In this document: positions 18,550-64,000 of the stretch, piece by piece | Layout: each line of letters opens with the position of its first letter | Numbering within the stretch: position 1 is the stretch's first letter | NCBI GenBank assembly: GCA_963837355.1 | Contig: CAWIMY010000001.1 | Location: forward strand, 18,714-82,713 | Reading direction: 5' to 3' | DNA length: 64,000 nucleotides | Origin: an uncultured Saprospiraceae bacterium | GTDB lineage: Bacteria; Bacteroidota; Bacteroidia; Chitinophagales; Saprospiraceae | Notes under the pieces: generated by a model | Told to the model about the DNA's origin: nothing | The model's input: only the letters and a program-made list of their open reading frames with translations | Databases searched by the model: none | Translations under genes and position numbers: made by a program

Positions 18550-19071
18550 TTACTTTGTAATCTCAGCTTGTAAACTTTCGGATACACATTGCGCACCTTT
18601 CGTAATTTTAGAGGCATATATTTTGCCTAGTCCTTTTACTTTCCAATCTAAACTACCACCGTCTAAAGATGGGTACCGCATTAGCGCTATTTTATCACTG
18701 GCCAGTTGATCAACCTGTTCTTTAGTTAGTTTAAAGTGGTATGTATACATACTTATGATTGTTGTTTCAATTAATCTACTCTGTGGATTGGCATCGTCAA
18801 TGGACTTAAGTTTAACTATATCGCCATTGTTCAACTTGAACATGATCTCACTACCTTTTAGAACAGAAACATTTTGCTCACCTCCGTAAGAAAAAGTAGT
18901 GTAAAAATCTGTGAACTCTCCTCCTGTATTTTCATACCTTAGCGTTTTGTATTGATTCATAAATTTGATAGTTCTTTCTCCTGTGAAAGGGTCAGCTTGC
19001 ACTTCGCATTTTTGTCCATAACTAAAGCTGATAGATAGTAAGAAGCATAAAGAAATTAGGAAAAAAGTCAT
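18550..19071 (-). CDS. hypothetical secreted protein
   Basis: Signal peptide MTFFLISLCFLLSISFSYGQ. AT-rich. No family was recognised. Confidence 0.5.
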   Translation of the reverse strand: MTFFLISLCFLLSISFSYGQKCEVQADPFTGERTIKFMNQYKTLRYENTGGEFTDFYTTFSYGGEQNVSVLKGSEIMFKLNNGDIVKLKSIDDANPQSRLIETTIISMYTYHFKLTKEQVDQLASDKIALMRYPSLDGGSLDWKVKGLGKIYASKITKGAQCVSESLQAEITK

Positions 19072-49059: not shown

Positions 49060-50973
49060 CTAAGGGTGCATGCCCTGAATTAAGCGTTTCGACATATTGA
49101 CAAAATTGCGCTCAGAGATCAAGCCGATTAGCTCTTCTCCTTTGACAACAGGCAAAATGTGTAAATTTTCGTCTTTCATCAGTTTAATCACTTCTACCAT
49201 GCGCATCTGCTGCGTCACCGTTTTGGGATTTCGCTTCATAATCTCCCCTATAGTCGTATCTTCAGAGCGTTTCGAAGCTTGTGCAAAATGCTTTAAAATT
49301 AGCTTCGAGGTAATCAATCCCTTCAAATTTCCCTGTCCATCTTCTACAGGCATAGAAGAAATATCGCCCCAATCCATCAATGCCGAGGCAAATTCCAACG
49401 AATCTTCTTCTTGCAAGGTGAAAATATCAGTCGTCATAAATTCCTCTACCAGCAACTGAGAGTGGTCGTATTGGTGAAATTCGTCCAGCTTGGGCAAGGG
49501 CCACTCGTGGGCAGGTTTACTTTGAATTTGATTGTGATAAATAGCTGCCGTGAGCGAGGTTAAGCCCTCGTCAATATGCGTTTCTTTGCGAAACTTGGTA
49601 TAAGCCTGTAAAATCCAGCGCGAGCCGTTCATGTGGCGTTTGGCACGTTCCTCAATAATCCCCAAATAGCGGTCAATATCGCCTGTATCAATGTTGTATT
49701 TTTCCAATCCCTGTCGGGCAATGGGCAACAAAATTTCTTGGGTCAAATCTCGCGCCGAAATCTTTTGGTTGTTCATCCAAGTGAACTTACAATCCATACC
49801 CGAGCGAGCGCCTTTCATGAAATTATCCCGCGCATCGTCAAAGCTCATCTGCTGGCGAATGTCGTCAAAATTCTCCGCCATGCCTTCCATTGTTCCTAAC
49901 CAAAATGCCGTGTTGGCCATTTCATCCAGTACAGTAGGGCCAGCGCCCAATACGCGATTTTCGATCCGCAAGTGCGGCTTTCCATTAGGACTAATGCCAT
50001 AGCAGGGGCGGTTCCAGCGATAGACCGTTCCATTGTGTACTTGTAAGGCTTGTAATTTGGGGGCTTTGCCCGCTTCGATAGCTTCCAAGGAATTTTGCTC
50101 AATATCGCTGCCCAACAAAATGCGGTAGCGCAAAATATCCTCTTTATAAATTTCTAAAATGGATTTGTCCAACCAGTTGTTTCCAAAATTAACCCGCGCG
50201 CTTTTGTGGCGCAAATGATCTTTGGATAGGCGGTTGTCAATGGACTGCGCAAACAAGGCAATGCGCGTTTCATGCCAAAGGCGTTTGCCAAACAAAACAG
50301 GCGAGTTCGTACACATGGCCAATGTCGGGCCTGTAATCGCCTGCGCGATGTTGTACATCTTTACAAAATTCTTTGGCGCGACCTGCAAATGCACTTGAAA
50401 ACTTGTGTTACAAGCTTCTAGCAGCGGCGAATCATGCAGTAAATTCAGCTCATCAATACCATCTAGGCGCAATTCGTAATCTGAACCCCGTAGGCTCTTC
50501 AGGGCAGTCATCAAGGCATGGTAGCGCGGTTTAGGGGTGAGCTGCTCCATACTCAAATCAAACTTGCGCAACGAGGGTAGAATCCCTGTCAACAAAATGC
50601 GCGTATCGTGCTTCGCTGCCGCTTGGTTGAGCAAGCCCAAGTTTTCCCGCAATTCCGTTTCCATCCGCATCAAGGCACTGCCCTCAAACACCTGCGGGTT
50701 CAAGTTCAATTCTAAATTAAACTGCGCCAACTCCGTCGTGAGCCACTCGGGGTGAAAATCTTTTAAAATATCCATCGCCTTATAGGCGGGTTTGTAGTGC
50801 TTGTTGATGAGGCACAATTCCTGCTCCGCGCCAATGCATTTCACATCGTCCTCAAACCAGTCATTTTCCAGCATGTATTCAAACGCCTCTACATCATTAA
50901 GCAGTTGGCGCACAAAATGGCGCATTTCCTCCGCTCCCTGCGAAGCGGCTAATTTGACCCGTTCTTCTCCCAT
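49060..50973 (-). CDS. carboxylate-amine ligase (GCS2-like) fused to a C-terminal CBS pair
   Basis: 637 aa. The N-terminal two-thirds resemble the glutamate-cysteine-ligase family 2. The C-terminal ~130 aa have the CBS-pair pattern (FMTTDIFTL..., LHILPVVKGEELIGLISERN). Confidence 0.55.
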   Translation of the reverse strand: MGEERVKLAASQGAEEMRHFVRQLLNDVEAFEYMLENDWFEDDVKCIGAEQELCLINKHYKPAYKAMDILKDFHPEWLTTELAQFNLELNLNPQVFEGSALMRMETELRENLGLLNQAAAKHDTRILLTGILPSLRKFDLSMEQLTPKPRYHALMTALKSLRGSDYELRLDGIDELNLLHDSPLLEACNTSFQVHLQVAPKNFVKMYNIAQAITGPTLAMCTNSPVLFGKRLWHETRIALFAQSIDNRLSKDHLRHKSARVNFGNNWLDKSILEIYKEDILRYRILLGSDIEQNSLEAIEAGKAPKLQALQVHNGTVYRWNRPCYGISPNGKPHLRIENRVLGAGPTVLDEMANTAFWLGTMEGMAENFDDIRQQMSFDDARDNFMKGARSGMDCKFTWMNNQKISARDLTQEILLPIARQGLEKYNIDTGDIDRYLGIIEERAKRHMNGSRWILQAYTKFRKETHIDEGLTSLTAAIYHNQIQSKPAHEWPLPKLDEFHQYDHSQLLVEEFMTTDIFTLQEEDSLEFASALMDWGDISSMPVEDGQGNLKGLITSKLILKHFAQASKRSEDTTIGEIMKRNPKTVTQQMRMVEVIKLMKDENLHILPVVKGEELIGLISERNFVNMSKRLIQGMHP

Positions 50974-51428
50974 TTGGTGATTTTTTTTGTAGGTGGTTCA
51001 TTGTAATAATACGGCCAAAAAAAGGCTAAAAACAGGCGTTCCCCTAGTCATGGCCTTTTAAAGCTAAAAACTAATTGTTAGTTGAAGAAATCTAGGAGGG
51101 ATATATTTGAATTTTGAGGGGAAATGTTTGGGGGAGGGGAGTATAGTTACCTGCGGTGTTGAAACTTAATTCATCGTTTACTTGTGTTTATGTTTGCTTC
51201 TTTAGAACAATTTGTTTTAAATTGCGTAGTGATTACTACGCAGGACGAAATTTCTACCCAATATTAACTTTTCAGGGGGATAGAAGAACTTAGAAGATTT
51301 AATACACAAGAAAAGTAGAAGTATGCACAACTGTCTTTTCACGGTAATTTGTGTTACCTTTGTTGGCTTTAAGTGTACAATCGTGTCTTCTAATTTTATA
51401 AGTGCATCAATTAACCTTATCTTTAAGA

Positions 51429-52283
51429 ATGAAAAAAAAGCTATCGTTTTCAGGACATGATAAGTTTGCTTGTCGACAATTCTGGCTCAAGAAAGGATTG
51501 ACTCACGTAGAGCAAGATAAATCCTTCAATGCAGATGCAGTGATTGACTTAGGGGTTGGTCGAAATATGGTTACCGCAGTTCGTTATTGGATCAATGCCT
51601 TTGGTGTAGTGGAGGAGAATGTACCCACTCTCTTTGGAAAAGCGTTGTTGTCGGAAGGAGGTTTAGATCCTTACATTGAGGATATAGGAACCTTATGGTT
51701 ATTACACTACAACCTAGTGGTTACAGAAAAAGCATCTATATACTCTATTATATTCAACGACTTTTTAAGACAGAGAATAGAATTTACTAAGGAGGCTTTA
51801 TTAAAATATATAAGTGATTATTGCGAGAAGCGGAAAATTAACGTCAATAGCAGTTCTCTACAACACGATATCAATGTGTTTATTAGTAATTATACGTTAC
51901 CAGAGAATAAGAAAGGCATAGAGGCCACTTTTAACGGATTACTGTACGAGTTGCAGTTGGTAAATAAAATAAAGAGATCAGGGGGATGGTTTAAAATAGA
52001 GAACGGAGAACAATCTTCTTTGCATCCTTCTATTTTGTTGTTCTGTATGATTTTTAACGACTCTGAACGTAGAATCTTTAGTTTTAACGATTTGACGAAT
52101 AAAGACCACAGCATTGGTCGTGTGTTTTGTATGAGTCCTAACGCTTTACACGATAAGCTCAATCAACTAACAGAATTGTATCCAGAAAAACTCCTTTTTA
52201 CAGAAGATGCAGGAGTAAAAGTACTTCAAATTAAAGGCAACTTAGATGCCTGGCAAGTTCTAAAAGACTACTATGAGAACTAA
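51429..52283 (+). CDS. sspB: DUF4007-type protein, SspB-like
   Basis: N-terminus MKKKLSFSGHDKFACRQFWLKKGL matches my memory of the DUF4007 start (F.GHE.F..R..WL.KG). It is the first gene of a 3-gene operon with an ATPase and a PAPS-reductase-like protein. Confidence 0.6.
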   Translation: MKKKLSFSGHDKFACRQFWLKKGLTHVEQDKSFNADAVIDLGVGRNMVTAVRYWINAFGVVEENVPTLFGKALLSEGGLDPYIEDIGTLWLLHYNLVVTEKASIYSIIFNDFLRQRIEFTKEALLKYISDYCEKRKINVNSSSLQHDINVFISNYTLPENKKGIEATFNGLLYELQLVNKIKRSGGWFKIENGEQSSLHPSILLFCMIFNDSERRIFSFNDLTNKDHSIGRVFCMSPNALHDKLNQLTELYPEKLLFTEDAGVKVLQIKGNLDAWQVLKDYYEN

Positions 52284-55200
52284 TTTTTCTCCCTCCATTA
52301 ATATAATACGAGACGTTGACACCGATTTCTATTATGTCCCTACTTCTAACTCAAAGGCAACTTATGAGCAAATTGCTAAGCAGTTTAACACAGGTATTCA
52401 TTCTTTCAACATTGTAGGAAGTTATGGGACTGGGAAGTCTGCTTTTCTATTGGCACTCAGCAAACATTTACGTTCAGAAAAGAATTACTTCGGGCCTATA
52501 AATGGTCAGTTTAATGGTTGTAAGCAATTTGACTTTCTCAATATAGTAGGAAGTTACGGTTCTCTTATTGAAGCATTTGCAACGGCACTAGAGGTAGAAC
52601 CTTATCCTACTGTTATCTTGAAAAGCTTAACCGATAAACGGGGAGATGAAAAGAATACTTGTCAAGTTATTAGTATTGATGAGTTGGGTAAGTTCTTGGA
52701 ATATGCAGTAGAAAATAATCCCGATGAGGAGTTATACTTTATTCAGCAGTTAGCGGAACTCGCTAACGATGTAGACAGTAATATACTGTTTATTTCTACC
52801 TTACATCAAAATTTTGATGCCTATGCCATGGGGCTTTCTCGTAGCCAGCAGACGGAATGGGAGAAGGTTAAAGGGCGCTTGAAAGAATTAACTTTCAATG
52901 AGCCCGTAGAGCAATTATTGCAACTAGTAACGTTGTTCTTAGAAGAGAAGTTTGGAAATAGAGCGATCAAGAACAACGAGGAGTTGACACAGTGTATCCA
53001 AGAAGCTGGAGCCTTTAATTTGTTGCGTACTATTGACGAAAGTCTAGCGACAGGTCTCTATCCTTTTGATTTGTTATCTGCGATTGCTCTAACAAAAGCT
53101 CTACAAACCTATGGACAGAATGAGCGCTCTTTGTTTCATTTTCTGAGTGCGGAGGAAAAGTATGGCCTATATGATTACGATAAGGAAAACAACCCTTATT
53201 ACAACCTCAGCTGTGTTTATGATTACCTTCAATATAATTATTATAGTGTTTTATCTTCTAGACATAATCCTGCTTATTTTAAGTGGAGTTTGCTTAGGAA
53301 TTCTCTAGATAGAGTGCAATTAGAGTTGGCAACAAAAATAGAAGCAGCTCAAAAACTGGTTAAAGCTATAGGCCTACTGAATATTCTGGGAACGTCTGCT
53401 GCTAAAATAGATGATGCGTTGTTATTGGTCTATGGGGAAATAGCTTTAGGGTTAAAAGATACCGCAGGAATATTAAAATTGCTATTAAAGAAGAAAATTA
53501 TTCGCTACCAAAAATACAATGATCGGTACAAGTTATTTGAGGGGACGGATATTGATATCGATCAACTCATAGAAGACAAAAGGCGAATAGTAAAACCTAT
53601 TGTTGATATAGTAGCAGAGTTGAGAGGAAAGATTAAGGAAAAGATAGTACCTGCTAAAGCCATTACTTACAGAATAGGAACGCCTCGTTTCTTCGAACTC
53701 AACATCAGTAACACGCCTATTCTAAGTTTTCAGGCAAAAGATCGCGCTTTAGATGGAATTATCAATGTGATTTTTCAGGAAGACTTTGCTATTGCAGAAA
53801 TAGAGGATACTAAAGCAGAACCTATTTTGTATGGAGTTTACAAGACAACAGCACAGTTAAAGCTATTATTACAAGATATAAAAGCAACAGAGGCTGCTTT
53901 AACAGAAGCTCAAATAGATCGTGTTGCTAAGCAAGAATTAGTTGAACGAAAAAATTATCACATTGATATACTAAACCAAGCGATTGATGAGGATATCTTT
54001 AGCAGTAGTGAAAAAATAGATTGGTACTTTGATGGTAAACAAGTAGTAATTAACAGCTATAGAGAATTCAATAAGCAGCTGTCAGCTATTTGTGAGGTCT
54101 TGTTTACGGATACTCCTGTTTTCCGCAATGAATTGATGAATAAACAGAAGCCTTCAAGTGTTATTAATTCTTCTAGAAAACGATATTTTGAGCAACTGTT
54201 AGACAATTACAGTCTTCCTGGGCTCGGTTTCCCGAAAGCCAAACATCCTGCTGAAAAAACGATTTACTACACACTGTTGAATCATACAGGCATTCATCAA
54301 GAAAATGAGCAGGGGATCTACGCCTATTTTAGCACTCCCACGGAAGAGAGCTTTTTACCCTTGTGGGAAGCCAGCTGTGATTTCCTGAAAAGTGCCAAAT
54401 TAGGCAAGCGGTTTGTCTCCGAATTTGTAGATACATTACGGGCACAACCTTTTGGTCTAAAGGATGGATTTATCGAATTCTGGATAGGTACTTTTCTGTT
54501 TATTCATCGAGAAGATTTTGCTTTATTTGGAGAAGGGTACATTCCTAAGTTCTCTTCAGAAGTATTAGAACTGTTATTTAAAGATGCCCATAAGTACCAA
54601 GTCAAGACCTTTAACTTGGACGGTATACGCCTAGGTCTATTTAATACCTACAGAAGTTTAGTTCAAGCAAAAGCAGCAGGCAGCATAACAACTAGTTCCT
54701 TCAAAGAAACCGCTGCTCCGTTCTTGGTGTTCTATAAGCAACTACCCGATTATACGAAGCACACTGCTCGATTAGATGAAGATACCTTAACGTTTAGAAG
54801 TGTCATTAGTAAAGCCAAAGAGCTAGAGAAAACTTTTTTTGAGGATTTACCAGCCGCTTTTGGATTTACGCTCAAAACACTCCATGAGTCAGAAGGGGCT
54901 ATTGAGAAATTTGCCCATCAAATTACGCACAGCATAAAAGTTCTAAGAGAAGCTCTGAATGCCTTGGTAGAGCGTATCGAACACGGCATACTGGACATCT
55001 TAGGTCTGCAAGAGGGGACAGCACTAGAAGTGTATAGCGAAGTAATTAGAAAACGTTATGAACCCCTGAAGAAACACCTCTTGTTACCCAAACAGAAAGT
55101 TTTTTATAACCGTTTACTATCACAAATAGAAGACAAAGAAAATTGGATTAAAAATGTTGCCCACGCTGTCATTGGCAAGAAATTGGAGCAAATCACCGAT

Positions 55201-55476
55201 GTAGAAGAAGCCCAAATTGCCGATAAACTACAAGTAGCTTTTCAAGAGTTAGATGACTTGATAGAATTAGGTAAAACAGAAGTCAAAGCAGGAGAAGAAA
55301 TACTACGCGTCAAAATATCAGGGACACAAGATAAGGGCAAGAGCAAGAACATTGTCATTAGTGCCAAACAACAACCCAAAGTCACCGAACTAGAAGCAGC
55401 CATCGAGGGTATTTTATCCAAAAATAAAAAGATCAACCAAGCTGCTCTTCTAAAAGTTCTCAAAAAATATCTATAA
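52273..55476 (+). CDS. sspC: large P-loop NTPase in the SspC position
   Basis: Walker A IVGSYGTGKSAF near the N-terminus; 1067 aa. It overlaps the sspB-like gene by 11 nt and ends 1 nt before the sspD-like gene. Confidence 0.55.
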   Translation: MRTNFSPSINIIRDVDTDFYYVPTSNSKATYEQIAKQFNTGIHSFNIVGSYGTGKSAFLLALSKHLRSEKNYFGPINGQFNGCKQFDFLNIVGSYGSLIEAFATALEVEPYPTVILKSLTDKRGDEKNTCQVISIDELGKFLEYAVENNPDEELYFIQQLAELANDVDSNILFISTLHQNFDAYAMGLSRSQQTEWEKVKGRLKELTFNEPVEQLLQLVTLFLEEKFGNRAIKNNEELTQCIQEAGAFNLLRTIDESLATGLYPFDLLSAIALTKALQTYGQNERSLFHFLSAEEKYGLYDYDKENNPYYNLSCVYDYLQYNYYSVLSSRHNPAYFKWSLLRNSLDRVQLELATKIEAAQKLVKAIGLLNILGTSAAKIDDALLLVYGEIALGLKDTAGILKLLLKKKIIRYQKYNDRYKLFEGTDIDIDQLIEDKRRIVKPIVDIVAELRGKIKEKIVPAKAITYRIGTPRFFELNISNTPILSFQAKDRALDGIINVIFQEDFAIAEIEDTKAEPILYGVYKTTAQLKLLLQDIKATEAALTEAQIDRVAKQELVERKNYHIDILNQAIDEDIFSSSEKIDWYFDGKQVVINSYREFNKQLSAICEVLFTDTPVFRNELMNKQKPSSVINSSRKRYFEQLLDNYSLPGLGFPKAKHPAEKTIYYTLLNHTGIHQENEQGIYAYFSTPTEESFLPLWEASCDFLKSAKLGKRFVSEFVDTLRAQPFGLKDGFIEFWIGTFLFIHREDFALFGEGYIPKFSSEVLELLFKDAHKYQVKTFNLDGIRLGLFNTYRSLVQAKAAGSITTSSFKETAAPFLVFYKQLPDYTKHTARLDEDTLTFRSVISKAKELEKTFFEDLPAAFGFTLKTLHESEGAIEKFAHQITHSIKVLREALNALVERIEHGILDILGLQEGTALEVYSEVIRKRYEPLKKHLLLPKQKVFYNRLLSQIEDKENWIKNVAHAVIGKKLEQITDVEEAQIADKLQVAFQELDDLIELGKTEVKAGEEILRVKISGTQDKGKSKNIVISAKQQPKVTELEAAIEGILSKNKKINQAALLKVLKKYL

Positions 55477-55477
55477 T

Positions 55478-56602
55478 ATGAGTACCACTGTCAAACACGT
55501 ATTGGGAATTTCTGGAGGAAAGGATAGCGCCGCCTTGGCCATCTATATGCGCGATAACTATCCTGAATTGGAGGTGGAGTATTATACTTGTGATACGGGC
55601 AATGAACTGACAGAGACTTATGATTTAGTAGATAGTTTGGAGAGTTACCTGGGGAAGCCTATCACGAAACTACTAGCTGCTCTAGATACCCCTGAGCGTA
55701 CACCCTTTGATCACTTTTTGAGGGTATACGGCGGCTATTTGCCTTCTTCTACGGCTCGATGGTGCACAAAGAAAATGAAGCTTGATCCATTCGAAAAATA
55801 CATGGCAGGAGAGACGCCTACCATTTCTTATGTGGGTATTCGTGGAGACGAAGACAGAGATGGCTACATTTCTAAAAAATCTAACATCCAATCTATATTT
55901 CCATTTAGAAAAAACATTTGGAGCATTGATGTGATTCAAAAGGTCTTAGCAAATAACAAGATCAAATTTATAGAGGGCTTGTACAAGGAGTACGGCCACT
56001 CAGCTAGATTAGAAAGAACTTTAGAAATTGTCAAGCAGCCGTTGTCTGCCCATTTCAAAGTAGAACAAAAGTTAAACACCCTTTTAGAATTAGGAATTAA
56101 GGAATTCAATCGTGTCGTCTTTGCTTTCTTAAAAACTACCGATTACCCTATTGGACAGGCAGATCATTTTCCCTTAGTAGATAATGAAGATATCTTAGTT
56201 AGAGAAGACATTTTTCAAATTTTGAGAGAGACCGTAGGCATCCCAGCTTATTATGAACTCAAAGAGTACTACGTAGAAATAGATGGCGTCGTCCAAACAG
56301 GGTACTACTCTCGTAGTCGTTCGGGGTGTTTCTTCTGCTTCTTTCAGCAAAAAATAGAATGGGTTTGGCTCTACGAAACTCACACAGAGCTCTACAAGCA
56401 AGCAATGGAGTACGAGAAGGAAGGCTACTCTTGGATGGATAGTGAAACCTTAACTGAACTCGCCCAGCCTGAGCGTATTGTTGCTATCAAAAGAGAACAT
56501 TATCTTCGAATGAAACGTAACAAAAATCGCTCTAAGTCAGACTTGTTGAGCGATTTGTTGGATGATGCGGAGGGAGAGGGGTGTGCTGCTTGTTTTATAT
56601 AG
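55478..56602 (+). CDS. sspD: PAPS-reductase/PP-loop ATP pyrophosphatase, SspD/DndC-like
   Basis: PP-loop GISGGKDSAA. Cys clusters SGCFFCFF and GEGCAACFI at the C-terminus. Confidence 0.7.
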   Translation: MSTTVKHVLGISGGKDSAALAIYMRDNYPELEVEYYTCDTGNELTETYDLVDSLESYLGKPITKLLAALDTPERTPFDHFLRVYGGYLPSSTARWCTKKMKLDPFEKYMAGETPTISYVGIRGDEDRDGYISKKSNIQSIFPFRKNIWSIDVIQKVLANNKIKFIEGLYKEYGHSARLERTLEIVKQPLSAHFKVEQKLNTLLELGIKEFNRVVFAFLKTTDYPIGQADHFPLVDNEDILVREDIFQILRETVGIPAYYELKEYYVEIDGVVQTGYYSRSRSGCFFCFFQQKIEWVWLYETHTELYKQAMEYEKEGYSWMDSETLTELAQPERIVAIKREHYLRMKRNKNRSKSDLLSDLLDDAEGEGCAACFI

Positions 56603-56616
56603 ATGTATTAATTTAT

Positions 56617-57402
56617 CTATATATCCCCGAACAGCTTCGCTGCATAATCGGATTGTATAGTTAACCCCTTGTCAGTAAAGTAGGTAGGTTCAAATGAGTC
56701 TGCCAATGCAAGAAAATAAGGTCTCCATAGTCTTCTTTTTGCTCTATTCACTATGTTTAGATACTGCTTAGATTTCAATAAATTCATTAGTCTAGTACCA
56801 TAGAAGTTTCTTAGAACAAAATCGATCGTTAAAACGATGTCTAATGGAGGATGCATGAGTCTAGGCGCGTCTAAAACAAGTACATTCCCATAGTTTGTTT
56901 CTGAATCCTTTGTTAAACCAAATCCACCCATGTTGAAATGATATTCAGGATGAACTAAGCCTTTCCCTTCTCCATCGCTATCGTCTTCATTACGAATGTG
57001 CTTATCTAAATGCCATGAGATTTTGTAACGGGAATTCTCATCTTTTATTTTAGAAGAGGCTATGATCTGTACTCCATATTTACGCTTCTTATCCTGTAAG
57101 ATACAGTCAGATATATCTATTGGTTCTAAAGCCTTTTCATTAATCTTTACTCGTAATATTACTACGACATTCTCTATCTTTTCAAGGATCGTAGGTGGAA
57201 TTTTAAGTACTTCCTTATTGGAATAATTGAAGGTGAGATCACAGTCTAACTCTAGAGGGGTATTATTTGATGAAATCTTCTTTAATTTAGAGCGTAACCG
57301 TTCGATCTGCGCTCTAATTATTCCTGGTTCTTTACCCTTAAACACCCCTTCAAGCATTGTTAGTAGTAAGTCTATATCTTTAACAATTTCGCTGATTTGC
57401 AT
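56617..57402 (-). CDS. hypothetical protein, last gene of the sspE-like operon
   Basis: 261-aa ORF starting 6 nt after the upstream gene. No motif was recognised (VHPEYHFNMGGFG, LDAPRLMHPPLD). Confidence 0.55.
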   Translation of the reverse strand: MQISEIVKDIDLLLTMLEGVFKGKEPGIIRAQIERLRSKLKKISSNNTPLELDCDLTFNYSNKEVLKIPPTILEKIENVVVILRVKINEKALEPIDISDCILQDKKRKYGVQIIASSKIKDENSRYKISWHLDKHIRNEDDSDGEGKGLVHPEYHFNMGGFGLTKDSETNYGNVLVLDAPRLMHPPLDIVLTIDFVLRNFYGTRLMNLLKSKQYLNIVNRAKRRLWRPYFLALADSFEPTYFTDKGLTIQSDYAAKLFGDI

Positions 57403-57408
57403 AAATTA

Positions 57409-58503
57409 CTATGAATTGTATTTTTTTAGTCTTTCTAGTTCATAAGGAACTAAATCTTTCCATATCCCTCTATTTTCTTCACTGATGGCTTCATCAAGAC
57501 AGATATATTCATTTTCCTGCCACGAATAATGTAAGTGCTTATCGATGACAAAACCATCCAATTCAGAAATCGGAGTTTCTTTGTCACCGTAGCAGACAGT
57601 CCAATAATCTTCGCTAGATCCTCCATTTGCTAATTCTATTTTTATCAACCTTTCAGATAATACAGGGTACTTGTTTTGTAGCAAGCTAATTCGTTCACTT
57701 GCCATGAGATACTTTAAAGTGCTACCTTCAAAAGTAGTCTCCCACCAATCGTCTATTAATTCTGACCACCAGCGGGAATGGTAATCCATGATTCCAGAGT
57801 ATTTATACTGACTTACCATATCCAAAATATCACTCCATCCTTCTGATTGTTTGTCTATTCCAAATCGAGCTGCTAATACGTTCTCATTTATCAATGCTCC
57901 TTTTGGCATAATTAACTCTTCAGTTAAAAAGTATATTATTTCATGCGTGTCTCTTTCTCGTATATCAGAAACCTTTTTGATTAAGTCATAGTTGACCTTA
58001 TCTTTGTTCGAGTTAGATAATCCCAAAATGTTGCGTACAGATCTAGTTCCACTACTTCTTTGTACGTTGAGTTTTCTGTACTCTTCTACAAGTACTTTCA
58101 AGAGTTCTCCTTTCATAGCTAGTTCTTCCTTAGTACAAATAAGATCGAATAAATCTTTACTAGTCGTATCATTTGTATGCAGTAAACTAAAATTGGGTTG
58201 TGAGGAGCAAAGTATTATAGGAAAATCATGATTAAATTTCTCTTTATTTAAGGGTTGACTAACTAAACGTCGACATTGTTCTGCTAATGCTTCAGACGAA
58301 AAGTCTACTCGTGAATTATTTTCACCATCTAAACACCAATCTAATATTAAGCCATCTGGTTGCTCATCAAGAAGGATTCTTTTAGTATCTCTCCAAGGGT
58401 GATCTTCTCTATATTGAATAGATAACCCCTCAGTACGTTCTAATGTTCTCTTCACTCTTATGGCTGTATGTGCCGTGTCATCAAAGTATATGAATGTAAC
58501 CAT
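57409..58503 (-). CDS. receiver (REC)-like N-terminal domain protein with unknown Trp-rich C-terminal domain
   Basis: FIYFDD (D8, D9), GLILDWCL (D55), FPIILCSS (S100/S101) and K116 follow the order of CheY-type receiver residues, with non-canonical spacing. The C-terminal part reads YHSRWWSELIDDWWETTF. Confidence 0.45.
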   Translation of the reverse strand: MVTFIYFDDTAHTAIRVKRTLERTEGLSIQYREDHPWRDTKRILLDEQPDGLILDWCLDGENNSRVDFSSEALAEQCRRLVSQPLNKEKFNHDFPIILCSSQPNFSLLHTNDTTSKDLFDLICTKEELAMKGELLKVLVEEYRKLNVQRSSGTRSVRNILGLSNSNKDKVNYDLIKKVSDIRERDTHEIIYFLTEELIMPKGALINENVLAARFGIDKQSEGWSDILDMVSQYKYSGIMDYHSRWWSELIDDWWETTFEGSTLKYLMASERISLLQNKYPVLSERLIKIELANGGSSEDYWTVCYGDKETPISELDGFVIDKHLHYSWQENEYICLDEAISEENRGIWKDLVPYELERLKKYNS

Positions 58504-59723
58504 TATTTTCCGTATTTTTCATTTGGTAGTGTAATCATAAAGCAGGTAGTATATGGAGGAGTAGGATCAACTAGTTTAATGGTACCATTATATCCAACTA
58601 TTATGTTTTTAATTATATATAACCCTAGGCCTGTCCCAGTGTTTTCTTCTAAATCTTTTTTTGTTGTACCAATAGGATTAGCCGTAGTAAAGAATGAGCG
58701 GAATATCTTATTCTCGTTTTCGGGAGCAATCCCATCTCCATTATCTTGAAACTTTATAAAGACGTTCTTCTCGTCAGAGTAAGCGGATATACCTATACAT
58801 TTATCTTTAGGTGCTGCCCTTATTATTGCTTTTTTGGAGTTAGTATACAAATTGAAAAGTATAGATAGCCACTCAGAAGGGTGCATAGGGCAAGTCTTTG
58901 TAATCATAACATCGTATTTCTTTTCTAAGTAAATACCAGACTTTATACTACTGGGTTTTATTCTTTTTACAAACTCATTTATCACCTGCTTTACATTTAT
59001 AGGCTCTAATTCCCTCTTTGTATTAGCAGAAATAGAAGCTCTGAAATAAGCGGAATAAAACTTATAATTTTTAAACGCAGTTCTTAAGGAGCTTATATCG
59101 GCAAGAAGCTGAGATTTGTGAGGGCACTGACTCTTTTGCACTATGCCTTCGATATTGTTCACATCTAGTTCGAAATCTGTATCGAACTGCTCTATTTCAT
59201 GTACGAATTCACCTATAACTAGTCCAGTTCCTGCCAAGACTTGTAGCATAGCTACTTCTTTTATTTTTTCTTTTAGCTCCTCTTTTTGATTTTCTTCTAT
59301 TTCCTTCTTTACCTGATCTAATTTTTGAGGCAATGATTTGAGAAATAAGTCATTGGTTTTATCTTTATCTGGATCGTTAGATTGGTTTTTCTCTTGTACT
59401 CTTCTAATCTCCTCTTGCAAATTATAGTACCTCTCTATTATGGATTTTTCTCTGGCTAGCTTTTCATCTCTTCTTCTTTTAGCTTCCATAAACGCCTCAG
59501 CGGAGGCTAGTTGAAACATCGCTTTGTACAATACTTTATAGGTGAATACCTTTAATTCTTTAAAAGCCTTGTTCTCTATTAACCCCTCTCTACTAGCTGT
59601 TTCATCGAATATTTCTTTTCCACTCTCTTGGTCCATGATTTCTACAAATCCAAAGAGATTGTTGTTATTATACGGAATATTTATAGCAGTATCATTTCTA
59701 GTTTTCGAACAATCGACTGTCAA
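58503..59723 (-). CDS. histidine-kinase core (coiled coil + H-box + HATPase_c)
   Basis: H-box-like GLVIGEFVHEIEQF (H175). N-box LFNLYTNSKKAI. G1 DNGDGI. F-box IFRSFFTT. G2 GTGLGLYIIKNI. The frame is open only from 59726, so it may be the C-terminal half of the upstream gene. Confidence 0.7.
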   Translation of the reverse strand: MTVDCSKTRNDTAINIPYNNNNLFGFVEIMDQESGKEIFDETASREGLIENKAFKELKVFTYKVLYKAMFQLASAEAFMEAKRRRDEKLAREKSIIERYYNLQEEIRRVQEKNQSNDPDKDKTNDLFLKSLPQKLDQVKKEIEENQKEELKEKIKEVAMLQVLAGTGLVIGEFVHEIEQFDTDFELDVNNIEGIVQKSQCPHKSQLLADISSLRTAFKNYKFYSAYFRASISANTKRELEPINVKQVINEFVKRIKPSSIKSGIYLEKKYDVMITKTCPMHPSEWLSILFNLYTNSKKAIIRAAPKDKCIGISAYSDEKNVFIKFQDNGDGIAPENENKIFRSFFTTANPIGTTKKDLEENTGTGLGLYIIKNIIVGYNGTIKLVDPTPPYTTCFMITLPNEKYGK

Positions 59724-60780
59724 TATCTAGCCAGTCATTACCTTTCTCTCCATACGGCAGGACTCTGAAGCCATTTCTATATAGCTTAATACCACTAGAC
59801 TCTGCTGCCATTTTTTTGATGCCATTATATTCTAGCCTAGTAAAGTTGCTATCAAAGTCATAATAGTCTGCTCTATTGTATATAAAATAGTAGCACTTGA
59901 AATGAACATTACGTAGCTCTCTAAATCGTTCTTGAGAATCTTCTTTATCGTTCGCACTTATCCTTATTGCGTATTCGTCTAGCTCAAATTTCTCACTATA
60001 GACACTACAGTAACCATCTCCTTCATTATCTACAAAACCTTCAATAATAGCTACAGCTTTATCAAAAATCATTCTTTGAGGTTCTGCTATAGTTTGAATC
60101 TCACCGTTGAGGGATAGTTGCTCTTTGAATGAAACATGAAAGTAATTATCGGATTTATTCTTGGCTAAATTTAGAGAATTTGTTCTTTCAGATAGAAAAT
60201 TAGGTTGAAGTAAATCTGATACGTAGCGATAAACTCTACGGATTTCTACAGCTCCCCATGCTTCTCTTAAATTTCTTATAATTAGTTTAGTACCAGCTTC
60301 TTTAATAGGATTTACATATTCTACTTTATTAACAATAGATTGTAAATCGGTATCTATGTTATAATCATCCCAATTAATAGTTAGCTTCAAAGCCCTAGAC
60401 ATCTGCTTCATTTTAGTAACAATGACTAAAACAGTGCCTAGCCTTTGTGTGGAAAATCGGCCAATACCCTTTTTTCCAGCTTTCTTTCTATTGTATTTAT
60501 CTGAAATAGGATTATGAATCTTATTCGTTGATGAAAGTCTCATGAATCCATTCTCTAATCGCTCCAAATCCATTCCTTCACCATCATCATCAATTATCAA
60601 TGTACCTCCTGTGGTGCCAGCTTCTACAAATAATACATCAACATTATTCGCATCAGCGTCGTAGGAGTTTTTGATTAGTTCCGAAACAGCAGTTTCTGAT
60701 CTACCTACTAGTTCTATTCCTAGCCTGTTGATAATTCCAGCGTCTACTGAAAATGATAAATTTTTTGTTTTATCGTCCAC
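59698..60780 (-). CDS. GHKL ATPase (HATPase_c_3/MORC-like)
   Basis: Bergerat-fold motifs ELIKNSYDA (N-box), DDDGEGM (G1) and GKKGIGRFS (G2). Confidence 0.7.
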   Translation of the reverse strand: MDDKTKNLSFSVDAGIINRLGIELVGRSETAVSELIKNSYDADANNVDVLFVEAGTTGGTLIIDDDGEGMDLERLENGFMRLSSTNKIHNPISDKYNRKKAGKKGIGRFSTQRLGTVLVIVTKMKQMSRALKLTINWDDYNIDTDLQSIVNKVEYVNPIKEAGTKLIIRNLREAWGAVEIRRVYRYVSDLLQPNFLSERTNSLNLAKNKSDNYFHVSFKEQLSLNGEIQTIAEPQRMIFDKAVAIIEGFVDNEGDGYCSVYSEKFELDEYAIRISANDKEDSQERFRELRNVHFKCYYFIYNRADYYDFDSNFTRLEYNGIKKMAAESSGIKLYRNGFRVLPYGEKGNDWLDIDSRLFEN

Positions 60781-60803
60781 TGTTCTAATTTTACTGGTTA
60801 ATA

Positions 60804-63101
60804 TTATTCATCTCCTAACCACTCCCAAACCAAATCCAAAATCCGCCCAGCCCTTTTCTCCACAAAAGCCTGATCCCAAGTCCCATCAACCCCCAACTGC
60901 ACCAACGGCTCAATATGACGTTTGTAACTAGAAGATTGTAACAACTCCAAAGTTTTAGGACTAAGCTCCACCCCGTGGTGTTCGGCAGTAGTTTTGAGTG
61001 CTGTTTGATCATCCAAGTCGCTTTCACTAAGGTATTTGTAATAAAAATACTTAGATTTCCAGCCTTTGTTGCTTACGGAGCTATTTATTTCCGTTGGTAA
61101 GAGGGTTAGGTTACCAATAGATTGATACCATTCATCTTTAGTATAGAGTGATTCGTCCCACTCTCTCGTCCCATTTCTAGGAGCAACATGCTCGATGGAC
61201 TTTAAGTCTTCAGAGTCCCACTGTTTGGCTGTTAAGTAAGGGGATACACCTACCTTTCCTGCTTTCATTAAACCAATGTGGTCAAGGTCAGTAATAGTAT
61301 CATGGGCACTAATAAATAACGCCAACTTACAGACGGAGCGCGCTTTGTCATAACGCAAGCGTAAGAGCGCCCGTTCTTTCCAAGAAGTTTTATTGACAAT
61401 ATCTTTTTCCAGCAAAACCTCTTGGAAATAATCTGCCAGCAAATCTACATTTAGTACAGGATGATCCCGCCAAGAGTTGGCTAGTTCGGTTTTACCATCC
61501 TTTCCTTCTGGTCGCTTTATAAACGTTCTGTATTGTACATCCAGCCCTGCATTAGAGTGGGAAGAGCGCCATTGTGTGTAAAAGCGAGCCACTAATTTGG
61601 TGGCTGTTACAAATTTATCTACAGCTTGTGGACGGTCTCTCAAAATATCAGCATACAACCGCCCCAGAATAATGATAGACATTTTGTGGTTGGACTCCTT
61701 CAAATAACGGAGAAGTAAGGACGCTAGTTCTGCTTCTGGATGGCCTTTTAGCATTGGAATAACGCTGCCATCATCTCCTTTATAATCTAGCCAAACGTTC
61801 TTATAAAAAGAGGCATAGTCTCCAAAGAAATTTATGAACGCTTGTTTCTCTTCATCCGTTTGGCAAACATTGTTATAAGTTTCGGTCAACCACTTTCGTT
61901 GTTGGCTAAAATGGCTGTTTAGTTTTTTACCCTCAACAGTCAGTGCAAAAGAGGTTAAGAATTCTTTTGTTAGGCTACTCTTACGATTAGCACTTTTAGT
62001 ATCTTCAAATAAGGCATCTACCTTTTCTATGCTCTCTTCTGCTTTCGAGCCTTTATAGCCCCGTTCCGAGTGTTTGGCCACATAATTAACAACGTTTGGT
62101 TTGAATGTTTCAATTGCTGTGAGCGGGGTGCCAGTAGCATTTAACGACTGAAACATATCGAAGGCCCAATCTTCATTCATGGGTTGGATAATGGTGAAGC
62201 AACAGCGTTCTAACAAGTAATGAGCTACAGCAAACAGCTGCACTAAGGAAGAAAGTTGATAGCTCATTGTTTTACTAGAACTATAGTCCTTTGTGCGTAC
62301 AACATCTTCTAAATCCTTTCTCTCATACTGCCAAATATTGTCTTGATTGATACCGTTTAGAATATCAACCGCAGTAATGAACTCATCGTCTTCTTTGATA
62401 TGTGCCTGTAAAACTGTCTTTTTTATCCATTCATTAATGCGCTTAAGATTGCGTCCAGTTCTACTTGTTTTACCAAATACAGGCAATGTATCTGCTTTAC
62501 AAGAATCATCTATATACTCTATGAATTGAGCTAAGTAGTTCGCAACATCAGATTTGTAGCTAGCATGAAGTTCTCCATCTTTGGTCCATTGGTCTTTGTC
62601 TCCCCTGATAATTTTGGGTTTACGTTTCGGCTTTCCCCGCAAGTTTAAAGAGAAAACATCTATTATTTTTTCGTACCAGTCATCACAGGCCTCCCTTACT
62701 GCATCTTTAACCGCTTGATTATCGGATGCATTAATTGTTTTCTGTAATTCTTTGATATGATGGTAAAGAAGTGTAGAGAATAAGGCAATAGTTGATAGTC
62801 TTTGTTGACCATCTATAATATTGACAATTAAGGAAGGTAATCCTGCTGGATCTATAGGGTAAATAGATCTACTATCATTCACTTTTACAGAAATGACTGT
62901 ACCTAAAAATCGTATCTCATCTTTGTTCTCTGTTATAGACATAATGCCTTGGGAAACATCGTCTAGCAACTGCTCAATGTTGTCTTTATCCCAGCTATAC
63001 TCGCGCTGATATAAGGGAATATATAAACCTACTCCAGGCTTCTGGTAGAAACCGTGGACATTCAGCGTTTCAGGATTAAACGCCTTATCAATTTGTAACA
63101 T
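60804..63101 (-). CDS. sspE: DUF262 + DUF1524 protein (SspE/GmrSD-like nuclease-NTPase)
   Basis: N-terminal LYQREYSW and DGQQRLST (DUF262). C-terminal IEHVAPRN...IGNLTLLPTEINSSVSNKGW (DUF1524 His-Me finger type). It sits next to the sspBCD-like genes. Confidence 0.7.
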   Translation of the reverse strand: MLQIDKAFNPETLNVHGFYQKPGVGLYIPLYQREYSWDKDNIEQLLDDVSQGIMSITENKDEIRFLGTVISVKVNDSRSIYPIDPAGLPSLIVNIIDGQQRLSTIALFSTLLYHHIKELQKTINASDNQAVKDAVREACDDWYEKIIDVFSLNLRGKPKRKPKIIRGDKDQWTKDGELHASYKSDVANYLAQFIEYIDDSCKADTLPVFGKTSRTGRNLKRINEWIKKTVLQAHIKEDDEFITAVDILNGINQDNIWQYERKDLEDVVRTKDYSSSKTMSYQLSSLVQLFAVAHYLLERCCFTIIQPMNEDWAFDMFQSLNATGTPLTAIETFKPNVVNYVAKHSERGYKGSKAEESIEKVDALFEDTKSANRKSSLTKEFLTSFALTVEGKKLNSHFSQQRKWLTETYNNVCQTDEEKQAFINFFGDYASFYKNVWLDYKGDDGSVIPMLKGHPEAELASLLLRYLKESNHKMSIIILGRLYADILRDRPQAVDKFVTATKLVARFYTQWRSSHSNAGLDVQYRTFIKRPEGKDGKTELANSWRDHPVLNVDLLADYFQEVLLEKDIVNKTSWKERALLRLRYDKARSVCKLALFISAHDTITDLDHIGLMKAGKVGVSPYLTAKQWDSEDLKSIEHVAPRNGTREWDESLYTKDEWYQSIGNLTLLPTEINSSVSNKGWKSKYFYYKYLSESDLDDQTALKTTAEHHGVELSPKTLELLQSSSYKRHIEPLVQLGVDGTWDQAFVEKRAGRILDLVWEWLGDE

Positions 63102-63289
63102 GTTTGGGAGTGTTTATTCTAGTCTTATAGTTGTTTTGTCTAATAAAACTAGAAAAAAAAAGGCACATTCAAAGTATAAAAACCTATTATTATCAAGAAA
63201 AACTAATTCTCATAATACTGTGTTCATTAAAAAAGGCCAACACTTCCTTTTAAGAATGTTTCACCTCTAAAATAATACTTCTAAGAATA

Positions 63290-64000
63290 TCATTCCCCCA
63301 AAACCAAAAACGTAGTCCGTCGATTCTCCTGATGCTCCGCATCCGTACACTCCGAACACTTACACAAATTGGCCAACAAACTCTCTCCGTAACCACGGGC
63401 CGTCAAGCGGGCAGGGTCGATGCCATTCTGAATGAGGTACTGCACGGCCGATTCGGCGCGGCGCTGCGAGAGCTTCTCGTTGTAAGCCGTGGCACCTTGG
63501 CAATCCGTGTGGGAGGAGAGCTGGATGTTGATGCTGGGGTTGCGTTTGAGCAAGTCTACCAGCGTATTGAGCGTTGGTTTGGCATCTTCGCGAATGAACG
63601 CCTTGTCTAAATCGTAGTAGATGTTAGGCAGGACAATTTCTTGATCGGTGAAGATTTTTTCTAGCATCAGCTCTTTGGAGAGCGTGGTATCGGGGTGCTG
63701 GGCGTTGAGGACGATGCCGACTGTGGACAGCGTGTCTAGCGTGATGAAATAGCCGGGTTTGCTGGCTTTGAAATAATAGACCGTGTTGGTGTCTAAGGTG
63801 GCGTAGAAGGTGCCGTCGATGTCGGAGCCTAGCGTGAAGGCCGTGTCTAGCGTGCTGATTTGTACCGAAGCGCCCATGAGGGGATTGTAACTGGCAATGC
63901 CGCTGTTGGGGTCGTCTTCGTCGTTAAAGATTTTTTCTTTGACTATGCCTTCTAAGTTGATGCGCAAGACCAACAGGGGCGTGTCGGGGAGGGTTGTGGT
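63290..64000 (-). CDS. OmpA-family protein, C-terminal part (5' end outside window)
   Basis: OmpA-like domain NIYYDLDKAFIREDAKPTLNTLVDLL...SHTDCQGATAYNEKLSQRRAESAVQYL...RRTTF. The frame stays open to nt 64000. Confidence 0.8.
   Translation of the reverse strand, partial: TTTLPDTPLLVLRINLEGIVKEKIFNDEDDPNSGIASYNPLMGASVQISTLDTAFTLGSDIDGTFYATLDTNTVYYFKASKPGYFITLDTLSTVGIVLNAQHPDTTLSKELMLEKIFTDQEIVLPNIYYDLDKAFIREDAKPTLNTLVDLLKRNPSINIQLSSHTDCQGATAYNEKLSQRRAESAVQYLIQNGIDPARLTARGYGESLLANLCKCSECTDAEHQENRRTTFLVLGE

Follow-up and report, generated by a model that had tools for sequence, protein, structure and literature searches.

An Ambrosia-related kinase–receiver cassette beside sspBCD and sspE in a Saprospiraceae genome: a candidate partner of DNA phosphorothioation

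Phosphorothioate (PT) is installed in DNA by SspBCD and stimulates the nickase SspE (PMC8092258 and work cited there); for 83.9% of sspBCD clusters, no restriction partner is known (PMC8092258). The 64,000-nt stretch of DNA analyzed here (designated as the window; positions 18,714 to 82,713 of contig CAWIMY010000001.1, GenBank assembly GCA_963837355.1, from an uncultured Saprospiraceae bacterium) carries sspBCD, sspE and, between the two, genes for a GHKL-type histidine kinase, a receiver (REC) protein and a 261-aa protein designated as g5. The question that this locus raises is how the kinase, REC and g5 genes, which we refer to as the cassette, relate to their neighbors: whether they serve SspE, form a second restriction-type module on the same PT modification genes, or share an island with them and nothing more.

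Judging from sequence comparison, the locus is SspE plus an Ambrosia-related three-gene cassette in which the methylase of Ambrosia appears to be replaced by phosphorothioation. We favor, with a probability of about 0.6, the reading that two restriction-type modules share the single PT modification module sspBCD (51402–56602). Module A would be a standard SspE, while Module B, a member of the Ambrosia superfamily, would consist of a paraMORC-headed sensor kinase, a REC protein whose C-terminal region may bind DNA, and g5. In the cassette, the catalytic motifs of the two ATPase domains are intact, both phospho-acceptor residues (His and Asp) are present, the receiver fold is recognizable, and there is linkage to sspBCD at the operon level.

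Components of the cassette

An earlier note, made by a model from the DNA letters, had listed five minus-strand open reading frames (ORFs), which we re-derived with identical coordinates (Table 1) and spacings (going from ORF 1 to ORF 5, a gap of 23 nt, overlaps of 26 nt and 1 nt, and a gap of 6 nt). The note had taken the GHKL ATPase of ORF 2 (ELIKNSYDA, DDGEGM and GKKGIGRFS) and the kinase core of ORF 3 (FVHEI, with H175) as products of separate genes. The motifs are present, and the two ORFs match HATPase_c_3 and HATPase_c, respectively, but intact homologues are single proteins. The joined ORFs retrieved more than 3000 protein matches (best, 60% identity), and among the 120 listed nearly all are single polypeptides of 715–778 aa that possess HATPase_c_3 plus HATPase_c and cover 98–100% of the query. 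In a 29-sequence alignment, the repaired window kinase is collinear with its homologues from end to end, and the ORF 2/ORF 3 break falls within the conserved block GNDWLDID...NLFGFVEI. The ORF overlap contains a run of four A residues (cgaaaacta, ~59700–59706). Removing one A restores the frame, and the resulting junction, in which ...DIDSRLFE is followed by TRNDTAINIPYNNNNLFGFVEI..., aligns with the intact homologues. ORF 3 begins with TTG and has no independent homologues of its own length. By this comparison, ORFs 2 and 3 are the halves of one gene with a 1-nt frameshift. A programmed frameshift was rejected, since the relatives all lack the split and its site does not form a canonical slippery heptamer; the same two facts point to a frameshift mutation or an assembly error.

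In repaired numbering, residues 1–190 of the kinase form a GHKL ATPase of the MORC/MutL (paraMORC) type, in which E34, N38, D65, G67, G69 and K104–G107 are invariant among 29 diverse kinases. This head is followed by a conserved middle domain (residues 190–420), a charged, variable and coiled-coil-like linker (residues 420–505; 12% mean pairwise identity), a DHp helix with the invariant H-box residue H527, which is H175 of ORF 58503–59723, and a complete CA domain, whose N (N643/N647), G1 (D679/G681/G683), F (F693/F696) and G2 (G715/G717/G719) boxes are likewise invariant in the 29 kinases. The paraMORC-type head may act as the input domain of the kinase and respond to DNA or infection, and the kinase thus offers a test case for a MORC-type ATPase in that position. 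The GHKL head is common to GHKL Type II restriction endonucleases (BbrUII/HgiDII family) and MORC/paraMORC ATPases; the C-terminal half of the window kinase is, however, a histidine-kinase core and not a nuclease. The N-terminal 180 residues match NCBIfam restrict_BbrUII (3e-23) and PADLOC REase_II (5e-15), both far below the family cut-offs, and PADLOC reports no more than this partial "Type II REase" match for the head. Detocs, Mza and a BbrUII-type restriction enzyme were rejected as identities, since only the GHKL head matches and at scores far under those cut-offs. In one alphaproteobacterial metagenome-assembled genome (L080:10019-13194; L numbers are our locus labels), a 313-aa ORF interrupts the kinase gene, with a second, homologous ORF of 313 aa farther downstream within that locus.

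The model of the REC protein made with AlphaFold2 (AF2) has a predicted local distance difference test (pLDDT) score of 93.5, and its residues 1–130 superpose on the receivers of NarL, PhoB and VicR (Foldseek probability 1.0, target-normalized TM ~0.7). The acidic pocket that had been read from the sequence is largely borne out: D8, D9, D55 and S100 are invariant in 45 REC homologues and lie in a true receiver fold, while the Lys had been misplaced at K116, which is not conserved among these homologues; the conserved one is K125 at the end of β5 (at least 90%). The canonical phosphorelay residues, namely the H-box His and N/G1/F/G2 boxes of the kinase and the D-D-D-S/T-K pocket of the receiver, are therefore all present. 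Residues 131–364 constitute a conserved Trp-rich C-terminal region, whose modeled helix–strand order could fit a winged helix and which may be DNA-binding. A PDB profile search with the region gave no match, and the Foldseek matches of the whole protein were dominated by the receiver domain.

The third component, g5, has no match in Pfam, PADLOC, NCBIfam, PDB sequences, PDB folds or BFVD, in line with the earlier description of a protein devoid of recognizable motifs, and RefSeq names both REC and g5 homologues hypothetical proteins. An exhaustive profile search collected 747 cluster representatives at 50% clustering, so that g5 stands for a sizeable new protein family (at least 747 clusters at 50% identity) with no recognized fold or function. 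Conservation centers on a core rich in His and Asp: among 220 members, H131, D133, H151, P152, H155, G159/G160, P180/R181, P186 and L191 reach at least 95%, G172 and D188 at least 90%, and H184 85%. Residues 1–125 are hypervariable (14–15% mean pairwise identity). A divergent HNH/His-Me finger had suggested itself by a loose H...GG...N...H likeness seen by eye alone, and was rejected on account of negative hhalign, Pfam, PDB profile and Foldseek (PDB and BFVD) results; 33 g5 members gave no Pfam HNH match at E up to 1. A 2-oxoglutarate/Fe(II) oxygenase (HxD...H...R) was rejected because the spacing and the predicted helical C-terminus are unsuitable. Residues 222–231 of g5 (KRRLWRPYFL; window ~56710–56739) resemble KRRKIRPYKL of the otherwise unrelated AbrD-like HNH proteins of L082–L094 (hhalign E 0.14), which may be a docking motif or chance.

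Upstream of the kinase gene, the sequence of gene 60804–63101 identifies it as a canonical SspE. The motifs QREYSW, DGQQRLST, IEHVAP and GNLTLLP are present, and the SspE architecture that they had suggested is confirmed by Pfam and PADLOC: GmrSD_N (DUF262, 3e-25), with its DGQQR motif, and a C-terminal HNH-type GmrSD_C (DUF1524, 1e-12) are joined in a single polypeptide, and sspBCD lies 4.2 kb away.

Table 1. Features of the PT modification genes, the cassette and sspE in window coordinates
Feature	Position	Strand	Evidence
sspB (DUF4007)	51402–52283	+	PADLOC SspB 5e-89; Pfam DUF4007 7e-73
sspC (ATPase; BrxC/PglY-related by PADLOC)	52273–55476	+	PADLOC SspC E = 0, residues 12–1044
sspD (PAPS-reductase-like, SGGKDS P-loop)	55478–56602	+	PADLOC SspD 4e-87; Pfam PAPS_reduct
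g5, ORF 5, 261 aa, putative effector	56617–57402	-	conserved third cassette gene, no database match
REC protein, ORF 4, 364 aa, response-regulator-like	57409–58503	-	AF2 and Foldseek receiver fold, invariant pocket
AbrB-like sensor kinase, repaired ~758 aa	58503–60780	-	read as one gene split into ORF 2 and ORF 3
ORF 2 (N-terminal kinase part)	59698–60780	-	Pfam HATPase_c_3
ORF 3 (C-terminal kinase part)	58503–59723	-	Pfam HATPase_c
Frameshift zone, 26-nt ORF 2/ORF 3 overlap	59698–59723	-	sequence and three-frame translation
sspE, ORF 1, 765 aa, PT-sensing nicking nuclease/NTPase	60804–63101	-	PADLOC SspE 3e-296, residues 8–761

Relatives of the cassette and its modification modules

Ambrosia comprises the XRE regulator AbrR, the N6-methylase AbrA, the HATPase kinase AbrB, the REC protein AbrC and the HNH protein AbrD (bioRxiv 10.1101/2025.09.30.679545). 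It was validated as a phage defense in Pseudomonas aeruginosa, where all genes and the acceptor Asp D60 are needed and D60A abolishes defense (10.1101/2025.09.30.679545). We compared the cassette families with the Ambrosia sequences of the preprint's Table S1, using residues 1–399 as AbrB. By hhalign, AbrB matched the kinase family with a probability of 99.9, an E value of 1e-33 and 29% identity over 370 columns. An AbrC-like family matched the REC domain (96.5%, E 7.5e-10), whereas AbrC alone gave no significant match to the family, and the C-terminal regions differ. AbrD matched the HNH proteins that adjoin the most distant kinases (99.8%), and Ambrosia-type loci, with a kinase, a short REC protein, an AbrD-like HNH protein and a methylase, form a deep sister clade within the same kinase family.

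The window cassette thus resembles Ambrosia in having a soluble ~750-aa kinase that combines HATPase_c_3 and HATPase_c, with a REC protein and a small third gene after it and a DNA-modification enzyme in the cluster. It differs in that the third gene encodes the non-homologous g5 instead of the HNH protein AbrD, in that the 209-aa AbrC lacks the ~230-aa conserved C-terminal region of the 364-aa REC protein, and in that SspBCD phosphorothioation stands in the window where Ambrosia has the N6-adenine methylase AbrA. The island in the window has no flanking helix-turn-helix (HTH) ORF that could represent an AbrR-like XRE regulator. Ambrosia was reported in Gammaproteobacteria, whereas the window belongs to Bacteroidota. 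In another kinase branch (L096:8355-13933, with L093, L095 and L100), a HerA-like ATPase and a GHKL kinase are found with a 399-aa Response_reg_2-like receiver and an HhH-GPD glycosylase. The third gene is accordingly a swappable slot: it encodes g5 in some clades and an HhH-GPD glycosylase or an HNH nuclease in others, and in both clades where its product is recognizable it is a DNA-acting enzyme.

A 2021 in-silico study (Bellieny-Rabelo et al., PMC8011034) described histidine-kinase-like proteins with HATPase_c_3, HEF_HK and HATPase_c beside response-regulator-like Response_reg_2 proteins; these elements lie near restriction–modification (R-M) genes and paraMORC ATPases and were framed as regulators near R-M systems. 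The cassette shares the soluble HATPase_c_3–DHp–HATPase_c architecture, the adjacent atypical receiver and the R-M linkage. The family models fit it less well: HEF_HK (PF19191) gave sub-threshold matches to 6 of 29 cassette kinases (best E 0.0076), and Response_reg_2 (PF19192) matched none of 45 cassette REC proteins. The study stresses C5-methylases, Vsr and HNH_2 as neighbors and is silent on phosphorothioation, Eco57I-type methylases and g5 (PMC8011034). The claim that the system is undescribed therefore holds in part. The cassette class is already known, in silico since 2021 and, for one branch, through validation in 2025; its kinase is a homologue of AbrB and its layout appears in the 2021 study, while its coupling to phosphorothioation and g5 as a third component are apparently undescribed, both being absent from the literature that we searched.

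Detocs consists of the kinase DtcA, the buffer receiver DtcB and the receiver-effector DtcC, with an effector of the nucleoside-phosphorylase type. The cassette has in common with it a histidine-kinase-to-receiver phosphorelay within a defense locus. The kinase input domain and the effector are different, however, and the cassette is coupled to a DNA-modification module; the earlier separation from Detocs is thus upheld by architecture, and Detocs was rejected given that the three proteins have no PADLOC match to it and include a single REC protein, with neither a receiver-only extra protein nor a Detocs-kind effector domain. Identity with SspFGH, which the earlier note had left to be excluded, was also rejected. 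The SspFGH set consists of a Walker-A ATPase (SspF), a separate protein (SspG) and a protein with an FtsK/SpoIIIE-like C-terminus (SspH) (PMC8092258), a domain content that the GHKL histidine kinase, REC and g5 proteins lack; no PADLOC match named SspF, SspG or SspH was obtained for them, although the presence of such models in PADLOC 2.0.0 was not checked. The window agrees with the published SspABCD–SspE/SspFGH systems in its canonical sspBCD and sspE, and in that one PT module would serve two restriction modules. In the literature searched, we found neither a His–Asp phosphorelay in any PT system nor a kinase, GHKL or HATPase partner of Ssp.

To see how the cassette is distributed, we scanned one genome per GTDB species with the kinase alignment and annotated the best 80 loci with our own hidden Markov models. 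A kinase relative occurs in at least 559 GTDB species, and all three cassette genes were detected in ~55 of the 80 loci, from Bacteroidota, Proteobacteria, Chloroflexota, Deinococcota and Archaea; g5 is the third gene in every g5-type locus with enough sequence. A gamma-class N6-adenine methyltransferase (Pfam Eco57I/N6_Mtase; PADLOC MTase_II down to 1e-112) lies near the cassette in 56 of the 80, mostly flanking it directly, and sspBCD adjoins it in seven. Seven further metagenome or genome loci with sspBCD next to the cassette were reached through proteins. A reciprocal survey covered 60 metagenomic sspBCD loci akin to that of the window, with enough flank, that were found through SspD (55–82% identity to the window); the cassette is present in 10, SspE in 2, and a PbeABCD-like module in 31–42. 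The cassette is therefore conserved beside sspBCD in up to 24 further loci, the three surveys being open to overlap, and is a candidate for the missing partner in part of the 83.9% gap.

In L003–L011 and L015–L020, which include Chryseobacterium formosense (L018; FPAP01000001, record ~1,192,500–1,201,800) and Sphingobacterium siyangense (L020; CP080574, record ~2,844,350–2,854,820, with sspA upstream), sspB, sspC, sspD, kinase, REC and g5 follow one another on one strand in loci that lack SspE. The same one-strand order is found in ~20 loci overall, where the boundary between sspD and the kinase gene varies between 13 nt of overlap and a gap of 31 nt. In the window, sspD and g5 are convergent, with stop codons 14 nt apart. 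Among the protein-homologue look-ups, the window layout with SspE recurs only in L001/L002, and SspE accompanies the cassette in just 3 of ~25 Ssp-linked loci (the window, L001/L002 and L144). An HTH_3 ORF precedes sspB in L003.

In a neighbor-joining tree of the kinases, built from distances and carrying no support values, the Ssp-linked sequences all group in a single clade within the methylase-plus-g5 group. This clade is mostly from Bacteroidota, includes the window, and is free of the methylase at its loci. The pattern is one of modification-module replacement, in which SspBCD would have taken the place of the methylase in one lineage. A signaling-gated chassis may thus have exchanged both its self-marking chemistry (N6-methyladenine, m6A, for backbone sulfur) and its effector (HNH, glycosylase or g5), which would make it a natural experiment in how such systems read "self".

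Working model and competing explanations

If two modules share sspBCD, as we favor, Module B could act as follows. SspBCD, together with a cysteine desulfurase encoded elsewhere, would mark host DNA with PT, as is known for the family rather than for this locus. The paraMORC head would engage DNA or an infection cue, and ATP-driven dimerization would lead the DHp–CA core to autophosphorylate at H175 of ORF 3. The phosphoryl group would then pass to D55 of the receiver, the equivalent of D60 in Ambrosia, and the activated receiver may induce the operon or license g5. In the last step, the weakest of the series, g5 might attack DNA according to its modification state, with the variable N-terminal half setting target specificity. 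In the wider g5-type group, g5 occupies the slot of the HNH nuclease of Ambrosia and of the HhH-GPD glycosylase of the third variant. Two PT logics were considered: PT may protect self, as with SspFGH, or activate, as with SspE.

Several observations weigh against this reading. No sspA or cysteine desulfurase gene was found among the window genes, and the window copy of the kinase is frameshifted within a conserved domain. The cassette is present in only ~17% of closely related sspBCD loci, where PbeABCD-like genes are commoner. The same REC and g5 families occur with both PT and m6A modules. Methylation by AbrA leaves phage DNA unprotected (10.1101/2025.09.30.679545), and, given this failure of the Ambrosia methylase, classical R-M logic may not hold. 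As for g5, no similarity to any nuclease was detected, hhalign against the AbrD-like HNH family gave a probability of 0.4%, and the AF2 model has low confidence precisely at the conserved His cluster; g5 may instead serve as an accessory factor, or as an effector other than a nuclease. What is known of the Ssp-linked and g5-type cassettes comes, moreover, from sequence and predicted structure. A more specific proposal, that the cassette is a third class of PT-coupled restriction partner beside SspE and SspFGH, in which a MORC-like clamp senses foreign DNA, by its presence or modification state, and signals through a phosphorelay to g5 as a metal-dependent, DNA-damaging effector of new fold with a hypervariable specificity domain, is tentative, with odds a little under even. 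Under that proposal, the same chassis would be pluggable into m6A or PT marking and widespread in Bacteroidota.

The explanation that survives best beside the two-module reading is that Module B is a decaying remnant in this particular genome, with a genuine frameshift, a non-functional kinase and only SspBCD–SspE active, which we regard as a serious though doubtful possibility. Unless the shift is an assembly error, the 1-nt lesion may leave Module B inactive here. It lies inside a conserved domain, the downstream ORF has a TTG start and no independent homologues of its length, and similar decay occurs elsewhere, as in the split SspC of the Tannerella locus L024 and the interrupted kinase of L080. 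However, single-base shifts of this sort, here perhaps within a short homopolymer, are frequent errors of assembly; second lesions are absent, and neither the two kinase halves nor the two genes that follow show other damage, all catalytic motifs being kept.

An unlikely alternative is that the cassette is purely regulatory, a two-component system of the cytoplasm with the receiver as a transcription factor for sspBCD and/or sspE (or for the methylase elsewhere) and g5 as an accessory. The secondary-structure order of the REC C-terminal region is compatible with a winged helix, the genes flanking Ambrosia are transcriptionally induced upon infection and transcriptional control was proposed by the authors (10.1101/2025.09.30.679545), and the 2021 study treats such elements as regulators near R-M systems (PMC8011034). 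Given that the methylase-linked four-gene systems hold no other nuclease, however, a purely regulatory cassette would control a methylase only. Sister clades use different DNA-acting enzymes (HNH, HhH-GPD) as the third gene, which is the behavior of an effector, the hypervariable half of g5 is typical of conflict-driven specificity domains, and SspE is absent from most Ssp-linked loci.

Even less probable is a self-contained defense system that sits beside sspBCD in a defense island and neither needs nor reads PT. Such juxtaposition would be expected insofar as defense genes cluster; this island carries SspE as well, relatives of the cassette adjoin pAgo, PbeABCD-like and other defense genes, and the same REC and g5 families are found with methylases. 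It fits poorly with the ~20 one-strand loci and their tight sspD–kinase boundaries, with the SspD divergence seen in the reciprocal survey, and with the single Ssp-linked kinase clade, which is without the methylase that accompanies the cassette elsewhere; the replacement of the methylase by SspBCD argues for functional substitution.

The proposal of the earlier note, a single five-component system in which a kinase/receiver switch gates SspE, is very improbable: sspE and the kinase gene share a strand in the window and in L001/L002, with sspE upstream and 23 nt between them, and in L144 sspE directly adjoins the cassette, though convergently, but most cassette loci have no SspE, gating of SspE by the phosphorelay found no support, and in published systems SspE operates with SspABCD alone and its coexistence with a second restriction module, SspFGH, on one sspBCD has precedent (PMC8092258).

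Island borders and further neighbors of sspBCD

The 51–63 kb block has a guanine-plus-cytosine (GC) content of 35–40%, compared with ~45% in the surroundings, which fits an acquired island; relatives of the cassette adjoin integrases and a pAgo gene, and no phage-borne copy was found in the phage collection. A methylase-linked four-gene version is carried by the 89.6-kb plasmid NZ_CP014303 of Hymenobacter sp. PAMC 26628 (L181; record 70768–77351), where a Piwi-domain (pAgo) gene and a large DNA methyltransferase lie on one side and an Imm26 immunity-protein gene lies on the other. In Tannerella forsythia (L024:5573-8852), SspC is split over two ORFs, a sign of decay.

Pbe has been described together with DndBCDE. 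The PbeABCD-like module, in which PbeA (PADLOC E = 0) is accompanied by a small ORF, a PbeC-like ABC ATPase and a PF27807 'dnd_assoc_4' protein, is the commonest neighbor of Bacteroidota-type sspBCD (L010:11777-17043, L020:15577-20774, L117, L126, L139–L143 and others); no pbe genes were found in the window. In L109 (11147–12916) and L112, sspD is followed by a 589-aa MzaB-like GHKL ATPase (PADLOC 4e-16) instead of the kinase fusion, which may be a further GHKL partner of sspBCD. A pair of genes for an NsnA-like 366-aa protein and a Ser/Thr-kinase-like 302-aa protein (PD-T4-6/mad6-like) lies directly 3' of sspD in L117 (11111–13130, there before sspA) and in at least seven further loci including L126, L139, L142, L143, L151, L155 and L166.

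Promoter and terminator scans of the window stayed at background level and were uninformative. At the island border, a 637-aa protein (49060–50973, minus strand) combines a GCS2-like carboxylate-amine ligase region with two CBS domains and has a weak NCBIfam match (1.4e-5) to the CBS-domain anti-phage protein DS11. At the other end, a 16-nt inverted repeat (63113–63158; 88% complementary, 14-nt spacer) lies 12–57 nt upstream of the sspE start and may act as an operator or, alternatively, terminate the OmpA-like gene at 63290–63973.

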